Positions 8,644 to 34,088 of a DNA stretch of 64,000 bases are shown here, in pieces. Each line of letters starts with the position of its first letter. The stretch's first letter is position 1. The notes under the pieces are model-generated. The model was given only the letters and a program-made list of their open reading frames with translations, did no database searches and had not been told where the DNA came from. Where the stretch lies: the NCBI GenBank assembly GCA_016839555.1, contig JAEOUA010000003.1, positions 352,001-416,000 on the forward strand, given 5' to 3'. Position numbers and translations under genes: made by a program. The DNA is from Promethearchaeota archaeon. Its GTDB lineage: Archaea > Asgardarchaeota > Lokiarchaeia > Sigyniarchaeales > SOKP01.

Positions 8644-8757
8644 TGGGGACTGAGGGATTCGAACCCCCGATCTTCAGCTCACTCCCTTCCCTTTGCTTTT
8701 GGGTTAATTGCTTCGGGTTCTGGAGGCTGTCGCGCTACCGTGCTACGCCAAATCCCC
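8644..8757 (-). tRNA. trnW: tRNA-Trp(CCA) with a 40-nt intron (8680-8719) at canonical position 37/38; CCA end not encoded
   Basis: Minus strand: acceptor GGGGATT/AGTCCCC-A, D arm GCGT/GCGC, anticodon CCA at 8723-8721, T arm GGGGG-TTCGAAT-CCCTC. Splice motif: central helix CUCC/GGAG flanked by AG|A and UG|A. Confidence 0.93.
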
Positions 8758-32925: not shown

Positions 32926-33168
32926 TTAACCAAAATCTTTCTTTAAGATCCTTATCGCTTCTGGGAGTGTCAAGTGAGTTAAGTTTTGAGCTTTTTCTAA
33001 ATGTTTCGGGCAAAACCAAGCGGCATAAGGAGGATGACCTGTAAAGCCAAGTTTTGATGCTTTTTTATCCCACTTCAAATCATTTGGTCCTTTTTTAAAA
33101 TACAAAAGCTTGCATTCATCATTCTCTCCCATTCTTTTAGAACATACTTCACATATAGGTGGTTTCAA
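32926..33168 (-). CDS. small putative metal-binding protein
   Basis: MKPPICEVC...GHPP...WFCPKH; TTG start. Confidence 0.7.
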   Translation of the reverse strand: MKPPICEVCSKRMGENDECKLLYFKKGPNDLKWDKKASKLGFTGHPPYAAWFCPKHLEKAQNLTHLTLPEAIRILKKDFG

Positions 33169-33307
33169 TATTAATCAACTTATATTTTTAAAAATAAATA
33201 TTTAATGTTTTAGATATAATTATAAAATTGGTTTAAACCTTTAATGAATTTCTCAATTTTCTAAAAAATATAATCTTATAATTTAGCCTTTAATATTAAA
33301 AGATTTA

Positions 33308-33380
33308 GAATGTGTGCCCATTTGGAGATTCCTACTCATTGAAATTTTGAATTCTCATAGAAACACTATAAATGGGCACA
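33308..33380 (-). ncRNA. box H/ACA pseudouridylation guide RNA (single hairpin with K-turn)
   Basis: GUGCCCAUUU/AAAUGGGCAC lower stem followed by ACA (33313-33311); pocket AUAGU / CUCC; upper stem GUUUCUA/UAGGAAU; K-turn UGA...AAUGAG; 14 nt from top of pocket to ACA. Confidence 0.82.
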
Positions 33381-33449
33381 AATAATAATATTGCAACTCA
33401 AAATAATTAAATTTATTATTATAAAAAAAAGAAATAAGAAAAAAAATAC

Positions 33450-34088
33450 CTAAGTAGGTTGTGAATGTTGTTTTAATAAATCTTCATTAGTTTTGCCCAT
33501 TTTTATTGCCAATTCTGCTACAATCGCATCAAGGTAAGTAAATGCAATCTGTTCGAATTGCGTACCTTCAGGCGTGAGAACCGCATGATTTTCCTCATCT
33601 CGATCCTTTTTAGTTCTACCAAGGATTTTAATAGTGATATCACCGATACGCCCAACTACGGTCTCTGGGTGGCTGGTTATACATACTATTGCATGAGGTT
33701 TTATTGTATTTACATAAGTTTTTAATAAACTGACAACAATAGATGTGGTACCCGAACCAGAAAGCACAATTAAAATATCTTTTTTTCTAAGAGCGGGGAT
33801 ATGTCCTAAATTCGTAATCATATGAACTTCTGCCCCTAAATGCACTAATCGCGTTGCAAAACATTGTAAAATAAAGGCACTTCTTCCTGAGGCGAGGAGA
33901 AAGAATCTGCGATTATTAATTATCCCATCATGAATAATATTTATAAATTTTTGCGTGTATTTGAAATTTTGATCAATATGCTCCATATTTTTTTGAAGGT
34001 TGTTCATGATCAATTCCATAGCTTGGAATAGGATTCTTTTTGTCTTACCATTGGTAGGTTGAGACTCAATCTCAATATCATCAGCCAT
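33450..34088 (-). CDS. hxlB: SIS-domain 6-phospho-3-hexuloisomerase-like protein
   Basis: ASGRS, FATRLVHLG, LSGSGTT, ITS, PEGTQFEQ. Confidence 0.8.
   Translation of the reverse strand: MADDIEIESQPTNGKTKRILFQAMELIMNNLQKNMEHIDQNFKYTQKFINIIHDGIINNRRFFLLASGRSAFILQCFATRLVHLGAEVHMITNLGHIPALRKKDILIVLSGSGTTSIVVSLLKTYVNTIKPHAIVCITSHPETVVGRIGDITIKILGRTKKDRDEENHAVLTPEGTQFEQIAFTYLDAIVAELAIKMGKTNEDLLKQHSQPT

Follow-up and report, generated by a model that had tools for sequence, protein, structure and literature searches.

A putative single-hairpin box H/ACA guide RNA with predicted specificity for the closing uridine of 23S rRNA helix 69 in Loki-type Asgard archaea

Main finding

The window analysed here, a 64,000-nucleotide stretch of the genome of a Promethearchaeota archaeon, contains on its minus strand an unannotated hairpin which, together with a terminal ACA box, spans 69 bases (33379..33311). 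The RNA at this position is very probably an uncatalogued member of the archaeal box H/ACA guide class, judging from its fold and from the conservation of its parts among relatives. The reading that we favour, with a probability of about 0.78, is that of an independently transcribed single-hairpin archaeal box H/ACA sRNA of about 70 nt, which would guide pseudouridylation of the uridine in helix 69 of 23S rRNA equivalent to U1911 of E. coli. For this reading we infer, from sequence, the expression of the RNA, its assembly into an RNP and the modification itself. The type of RNA is an ordinary single-hairpin H/ACA sRNA; a guide for the 1911 equivalent, as predicted here, is not among the archaeal cases that we found.

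Architecture of the hairpin

The preliminary description of this DNA had placed a box H/ACA guide RNA at 33308-33380, which corresponds to the hairpin plus 1-3 flanking bases, and both the minus-strand sequence and the fold that it gave are borne out by our analysis. The 10-bp basal stem, two-sided pocket, 7-bp upper stem, K-turn and ACA box that it had claimed are all present. Read on the minus strand from 33379 to 33311, the RNA is GUGCCCAUUU-AUAGU-GUUUCUA-U-GA-GAA-UUCAAAAU-UUC-AAU-GA-G-UAGGAAU-CUCC-AAAUGGGCAC-ACA, with the following parts:

33370..33379, minus strand: 5' strand of the lower stem (P1), GUGCCCAUUU, forming 10 perfect pairs with AAAUGGGCAC
33365..33369, minus strand: 5' guide, the pocket strand AUAGU, complementary to ACUAU of host 23S helix 69
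33358..33364, minus strand: 5' strand of the upper stem (P2), GUUUCUA, forming 7 pairs with UAGGAAU, two of them G-U
33355..33357, minus strand: non-bulged strand of the K-turn, U (3n), G (2n) and A (1n)
33341..33354, minus strand: canonical stem of the K-turn, GAA/UUC, with an 8-nt apical loop
33335..33340, minus strand: bulged strand of the K-turn, a 3-nt bulge AAU followed by G (1b), A (2b) and G (3b)
33328..33334, minus strand: 3' strand of the upper stem (P2), UAGGAAU
33324..33327, minus strand: 3' guide, the pocket strand CUCC, complementary to GGAG of helix 69
33314..33323, minus strand: 3' strand of the lower stem (P1), AAAUGGGCAC
33311..33313, minus strand: ACA box, which follows P1 directly on the 3' side, 14 nt below P2

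The minimum free energy of this fold is -24 kcal/mol, compared with -11.7 +/- 2.6 kcal/mol in dinucleotide shuffles (z = -4.65), and none of 200 shuffles is as stable. We searched both strands of the 3.74-Mb genome with an H/ACA descriptor, which specified a K-turn or K-loop, an upper stem of 5-8 bp, an ANA triplet at 13-16 nt and a lower stem of 7 bp or more without mismatch. This search returned 11 matches, whereas reversed-sequence controls gave 4. Among the 11, the hairpin at 33379..33311 is the only one whose lower stem has 10 perfect pairs. The covariance-model score is 92 bits on the sense strand and 26 bits on the antisense strand, and the G-U pairs, the K-turn and the ACA box work only on the minus strand, which is therefore taken as the RNA strand. 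Comparison with Rfam gave no match at the gathering score over the whole window, and nothing relevant up to E = 10 over 33100-33600.

Two small features are seen at the ends of the RNA. Its 3' end (33311-33316, minus strand) reads CACACA, so that it contains two ACA triplets that overlap, one 12 nt and the other 14 nt below the upper stem. At the other end, U33380 can pair with the first A of the terminal ACA, which would extend the lower stem to 11 bp.

Agreement with published H/ACA rules

The preliminary description had also claimed an archaeal H/ACA architecture with its 14-16 nt rule, and the spacing, the position of the K-turn and the length of the pairing all agree with this. The published rule for ACA-to-target spacing is 15 +/- 1, counted as P1b plus the paired part of PS2 (PMC7075261). 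In the window RNA, 10 nt of P1b and 4 nt of CUCC sum to 14, which puts the target at n+15; copies that have a 1-nt bulge show a spacing of 15. The ANA-to-U distance of 14-15 nt given for archaeal guides (PMC2377435) is likewise found in the RNA at 33379..33311. The distal G:A pair, usually 9-10 positions from the base of P2 (PMC7075261), is at position 10, and eight bases on the 5' side separate the proximal P2 pair from the G:A pair located distally, which is the geometry of H. volcanii SL1 (PMC7075261). The bulge AAU conforms to the usual archaeal pattern of a U at the 3' end of the bulge (PMC7075261). At least 8 bp of guide-target pairing are required (PMC7075261, PMC2377435), and the window RNA can form 9-11.

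Two dimensions lie toward the edge of what has been described. The upper stem falls among the longest that are permitted; compared with the 5-6 bp of Pyrococcus H2 (PMC2377435) it is probably 1-2 bp longer, depending on the way in which H2 is counted. The 3' guide forms a short arm, of 4 bp in the window copy and of 3 bp in f2. In Pyrococcus this arm was found to be more important than the 5' one, and a weak arm of 4 bp did not work there (PMC2377435).

Conservation and covariation

In relatives, the pocket, the K-turn and, mostly, the ACA box are kept while the stems covary, as the conservation claimed in the preliminary description would have it. The covariance-model search that it had proposed revealed both compensatory stem changes and conserved guides. 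BLAST against 40 relatives identified 13 homologs of 77-89% identity, with flanks and an apical loop that could not be aligned. We built two covariance models, R1 from 14 copies and R2 from 41 copies. R1 finds one copy in 111 of the 131 genomes of the same family (f1) and weaker copies in a sister family, and R2 has matches in three families other than f1 (4 of 13 genomes in f2, 2 of 3 in f4 and 1 of 2 in f7), f7 belonging to a different order of the same class. In G032, a genome assembled as a single contig, the copy lies at 1403398-1403475. H/ACA stems drift fast in sequence, so the phylum-wide search with R2, which found no copy in 124 genomes outside the class, shows only how far the model reaches. 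In one genome (G042) the RNA and the SIS-domain gene next to it are each present twice, on separate contigs (C6 and C129), and this could reflect duplication, strain heterogeneity or contamination of the bin.

Standard pairs occupy 92.9% of the cells in the alignment of 41 copies, and compensatory double changes are seen in 17 of its 21 pairs, a value reached by none of 500 column shuffles. When the 3' partners are slid by 1-3 columns, pairing drops to 32-50%. The alignment was made by fitting the copies to the model, but the same covariation is visible in the raw sequences. In P1, 9 of the 10 pairs show compensatory double changes among the 41 copies. Versions of the lower stem include GCGCCGA/UCGGCGC, GCACCUG/CAGGUGC and AGCCAAGAG/CUCUUGGCU, and the raw homologs add further 5' strands such as GUGCCCA, AUGCUCU and UGGCCUAUC. 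In P2, double changes are found in 6 of 8 pairs over the same copies: position 3 is U-A, A-U, C-G or G-C across copies, and position 5 is C-G, U-A or A-U in the alignment and G-C in one further genome (G028).

The length of P2 is constant in every copy, while the apical loop varies between about 4 and 30 nt and the flanks diverge freely. A constant P2 below a variable loop is as expected if the distance between K-turn and pocket acts as a ruler. Within the K-turn, none of the 41 aligned copies departs from UGA in the bulged strand or from A(1n), and G(2n) is changed to A or U in 6 of them. This follows the usual hierarchy of K-turn conservation. In the canonical stem, the closing G-C pair is kept in 39 of 40 copies and the other pairs covary. 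The 5' guide AUAGU is identical in 45 of 45 copies, and the 3' guide CUCC is intact in 38 of 41. The box is mostly ACA, with AUA or AAA in some homologs, and about 8 of the 45 carry a triplet other than ANA (ACU, GCU, AUU, UCU, GGA or CUC). In H. volcanii the ACA is dispensable for typical single-hairpin guides (PMC7075261).

Predicted target in helix 69

Analysis of the guides points to the 1911-equivalent uridine of 23S rRNA as the predicted target, an assignment which is well-supported but unproven. The host 23S rRNA is available as a fragment at the edge of contig C12 in genome G000, which we found by pattern search. The contig starts inside the 23S rRNA, its bases 1-878 are 87% identical to LSU positions 2082-2959 of a relative, and it carries the 3' third of the molecule including helix 69. 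A whole-genome search with RF02540 reported no LSU match in spite of this fragment, which is a false negative; such a search can therefore miss truncated rRNA at contig ends.

Absence of a GGAG-U-N-ACUAU site from the host RNA had been named beforehand as a finding that would speak against the guide. The site is present as GGAG-U-A-ACUAU within bases 17-40 of contig C12 (CGGGAGUAACUAUAACUCUC), in the helix 69 context CGGGAG-U-A-ACUAUAAC. The helix had been described as eukaryote-like. This is right for the 5' stem, GGGAG, and wrong for the loop, which is UAUAAC as in E. coli and not UAUGAC; a pattern that assumed the eukaryotic GAC (GGAGTNACTATGAC) had no match in 41 genomes, the actual sequence being AAC. 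The pairing of 4 + 5 bases put forward in the preliminary description holds, with CUCC on GGAG (4) and AUAGU on ACUAU (5), all Watson-Crick, flanking an unpaired U-A. Its 5' part can grow to 7 bp, since two U's located 5' of AUAGU can pair with AA to give 4 + 7 pairs if the top of the lower stem opens.

The target sequence is identical in the 19 relatives in which the region is assembled (17 genomes plus G048 and G057), and in the full LSU and SSU rRNA of two relatives the helix 69 site is the best site. No alternative site is present in SSU rRNA and none of at least 8 bp in 28 tRNAs. When shuffled guide pairs were compared with LSU and SSU rRNA, counting Watson-Crick pairs only, 5 of 3000 reached 11 bp and 18 of 3000 reached any 4+5 match.

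The guides vary between copies in a manner that follows the rRNA. The 3' arm occurs as CUCC (4 bp), CUCCC (5), CUCCCG (6), CUUCC (5, one of them G-U) and CUC (3), and the 5' arm ranges from UAUAGU (6) to GUUAUAGU (8-9 bp including a terminal G-U). Every one of the 45 copies can form 10-13 bp in total, with 31 copies at 11 bp and 10 at 12 bp, and the added guide bases are exact complements of CGGGAG and ACUAUAAC, so that the same site is addressed throughout. This tracking of helix 69 by the varying guides is the strongest argument for the predicted target. The unpaired U aligns with position 1911 of E. coli, which pairs with A1919 and closes the helix 69 loop, and whose pseudouridine stabilises the hairpin (PMC3973299).

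A second perfect complement of the pocket, GGAGUAACUAUAAA (GGAG-U-A-ACUAUAAA), lies on the minus strand of contig C4 in genome G000 at about 229194-229207, in the sense strand of a 132-aa ORF. The 10-base core has nine genome-wide matches, approximately the chance expectation in 7.5 Mb. The complement on C4 is probably due to chance, and an mRNA target is conceivable.

Proposed mechanism

In the favoured reading, L7Ae would bind the K-turn in the upper stem, and Cbf5 together with Nop10 and Gar1 would bind the lower stem and the ACA box. The pocket strands would then pair with helix 69 of 23S rRNA, CUCC with GGAG and (UU)AUAGU with ACUAU(AA). The U-A dinucleotide would stay unpaired at the base of the upper stem, and because of this position its U would be the one that Cbf5 isomerises to pseudouridine. 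Cbf5 (424 bits, TIGR00425), Nop10, Gar1 and L7Ae are all encoded in the genome, with scores above the curated cut-offs. No gene of the RluA/RluD family (PF00849) was found in the genome; as the assembly is 92% complete, this does not prove the absence of an RluD-type enzyme.

Genomic context and a promoter-like element

The RNA is situated between two minus-strand ORFs. The upstream one (33450..34088) encodes a SIS-domain protein, and the hairpin begins 70 nt past its stop codon; the downstream one (32926..33168) would encode 80 aa with no Pfam match. In several relatives, deposited as Promethearchaeota or Promethearchaeia MAGs, the SIS-domain gene also adjoins the RNA. DNA of the window occurs in marine sediment and marsh metagenomes and was found in no RNA run. 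Between the SIS-domain gene and the hairpin we noticed the following element:

33402..33414, minus strand: AATTTAATTATT, a BRE/TATA-like promoter element upstream of the hairpin (22-33 nt)

We aligned 45 upstream regions without gaps at the 5' end of the hairpin. In this profile, positions -33..-31 are A-rich (60-76% A) and positions -28..-22 contain 91-98% A+T, as compared to 53-58% at -36..-34. In the GC-rich flanks of three copies (G029, G027 and G154) this element is the sole AT-rich block. The signal agrees with an archaeal BRE/TATA promoter from which transcription would start close to the hairpin base, suggesting that the RNA may form its own transcription unit. On the 3' side, a run of at least four T's within about 35 nt after the RNA is present in only 23 of 45 copies, and the window copy has no terminator-like T tract after the stem.

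In four genera (g11, g5, g6 and g2) a GC-rich block that begins with GGCGCCAATTGC, located about 10 nt past the ACA box, opens a conserved stretch of more than 150 nt:

L012:1590-1750 and L009:1585-1745: GC-rich conserved stretch downstream of the RNA

This stretch contains no tRNA and has no Rfam match in g11, g5 and g6, and it resembles the terminal part of a convergent protein gene. No such stretch lies downstream of the window copy, so the 3' neighbour of the RNA differs between genera.

Other elements

The H/ACA descriptor also selected a second hairpin, at 336929-336988 of contig C10 in genome G000 (plus strand), in which a lower stem of 7 bp is combined with a K-loop-like UGA...GA and with ACA at 14 nt. 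We regard it as a probable false positive, as the similarity in relatives continues into the flanks on both sides, in the manner of coding sequence, and no target in rRNA was found to fit. A regular-expression search for guides to the 1915 and 1917 equivalents proved highly unspecific. Elsewhere in the window, a 114-nt tRNA match (Rfam, 50.6 bits) lies at 8644-8757 on the minus strand, and ARAGORN reports the same tRNA as tRNA-Trp(CCA) at C1:360644-360757, so that it carries an intron of about 37 nt, which is ordinary for archaea.

Alternative explanations

The RNA could be a genuine H/ACA-type RNP RNA and still not modify U1911, either because it serves another RNA such as an mRNA, or because it acts on helix 69 as a folding chaperone without catalysis. 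Room for such a role is left by the shortness of the 3' arm (4 bp) and by the fact that no archaeal pseudouridine is known at the 1911 equivalent, and, in the case of another target, by the perfect complement GGAGUAACUAUAAA within the 132-aa ORF on contig C4. We nevertheless hold this to be unlikely. The helix 69 site is the same in all 19 genomes and the guide variants track it, a random rRNA match of this quality is rare (the 5 of 3000 given above), and the unpaired U-N sits at the canonical n+15; for another target in particular, matches to the 10-base core are about as numerous as chance would produce in 7.5 Mb.

It is considerably less probable that the hairpin is a structured 3'-UTR, a terminator or an L7Ae-binding regulatory element of the upstream SIS-domain gene, as its place 70 nt past the stop codon and the adjacency of gene and RNA in several relatives might suggest. 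A BRE/TATA-like signal at a fixed distance stands between that gene and the hairpin, and the 50-nt flanks of two distant copies (G029 and G154) are unrelated GC-rich sequence. A terminator would leave the invariant pocket bases, the ACA box and the complementarity to rRNA without a role, and the T tract typical of one is missing after the stem. Hairpins are common in AT-rich DNA, and this genome has a G+C content of 29.6%, yet a chance hairpin in intergenic DNA is hardly credible given conservation with covariation across four families and the excess of descriptor matches over controls (11 against 4). The same very low probability applies to a box C/D RNA: AAUGAG resembles part of a C box, but neither RUGAUGA nor CUGA occurs within 33311..33379, and the K-turn is internal to the hairpin.

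Implications

On the sequence data at hand, we consider it somewhat more likely than not that Loki-type Asgard archaea pseudouridylate the closing base of helix 69 (the 1911 equivalent) with a dedicated H/ACA guide. If so, RNA-guided modification of this position would already be present in archaeal relatives of eukaryotes, and the RNA family would show, as a clean case from nature, that a guide can function with a 3' arm of 3-4 bp. The natural variation of the arms (one pairs over 3-6 bp and the other over 6-9 bp, with the total always 10-13 bp) bears on the minimum pairing that a guide needs. Helix 69 lies in intersubunit bridge B2a, and the RNA predicts a specific pseudouridine at its 1911 equivalent. 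It also offers a data point on how the cluster of helix 69 pseudouridines came to be made under RNA guidance instead of by protein alone. To our knowledge, both gene callers and Rfam overlook the H/ACA guide RNAs of most archaeal lineages; the covariance models R1 and R2 can be used to annotate this RNA gene across Promethearchaeia.

Comparison with known systems

A search of the literature revealed no paper or catalogue of Asgard H/ACA RNAs, and no archaeal pseudouridine or guide at the 1911 equivalent, the known archaeal helix 69 sites being 1915 and 1917. In eukaryotes, human 28S rRNA is modified at the 1911 equivalent, and animals make this pseudouridine with a snoRNP; bacteria use the protein RluD.

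Two archaeal guide hairpins for helix 69 have been described, stem-loop 2 of sR-h45 in Haloferax volcanii (PMC7075261) and motif 3 of Pab40 in Pyrococcus abyssi (PMC2377435). The former targets positions 1940/1942 of H. volcanii (PMC7075261) and the latter position 2016 of P. abyssi (PMC2377435). Both thus address loop uridines equivalent to E. coli 1915/1917, whereas the window RNA is predicted to address the 1911 equivalent. Both also belong to RNAs of two or three hairpins, while the window RNA has a single one; moreover, stem-loop 2 of sR-h45 uses an atypical UNUN configuration, in contrast to the typical UN of the window RNA. Haloarchaeal 23S rRNA carries helix 69 pseudouridine only at the 1915 and 1917 equivalents (PMC2584109).

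The predicted product is the same as that of E. coli RluD, a pseudouridine at the loop-closing position which pairs with A1919 (PMC3973299). RluD, however, is a protein-only synthase for 1911, 1915 and 1917 that reads helix 69 without a guide RNA (PMC3973299). Yeast snR191 and human U19 resemble the window RNA in that they direct pseudouridylation of helix 69 through an RNA-guided Cbf5/dyskerin enzyme (bioRxiv 10.1101/2024.02.02.578723, PMC7075261), but they consist of two hairpins with H and ACA boxes, lack a K-turn and target the 1915/1917 equivalents. Yeast modifies the equivalents of 1915, 1917, 1921 and 1923, and not that of 1911 (PMC7277114).

The single-hairpin H/ACA sRNAs of Thermococcales (Pab91 and Pab160/Pf9; PMC2377435) are another close parallel. 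Compared with these, the window RNA has stems rich in AT instead of GC, its 3' arm is shorter (4 bp), its upper stem is among the longest that are allowed and its rRNA target is a different one, and it has no detectable sequence or Rfam similarity to them. The plan is nevertheless shared: in both, a lower stem and a pocket are followed by an upper stem with a K-turn or K-loop and by a 3' ANA, the ANA-to-target spacing is 14-15 nt, and the same four-protein RNP is implied.
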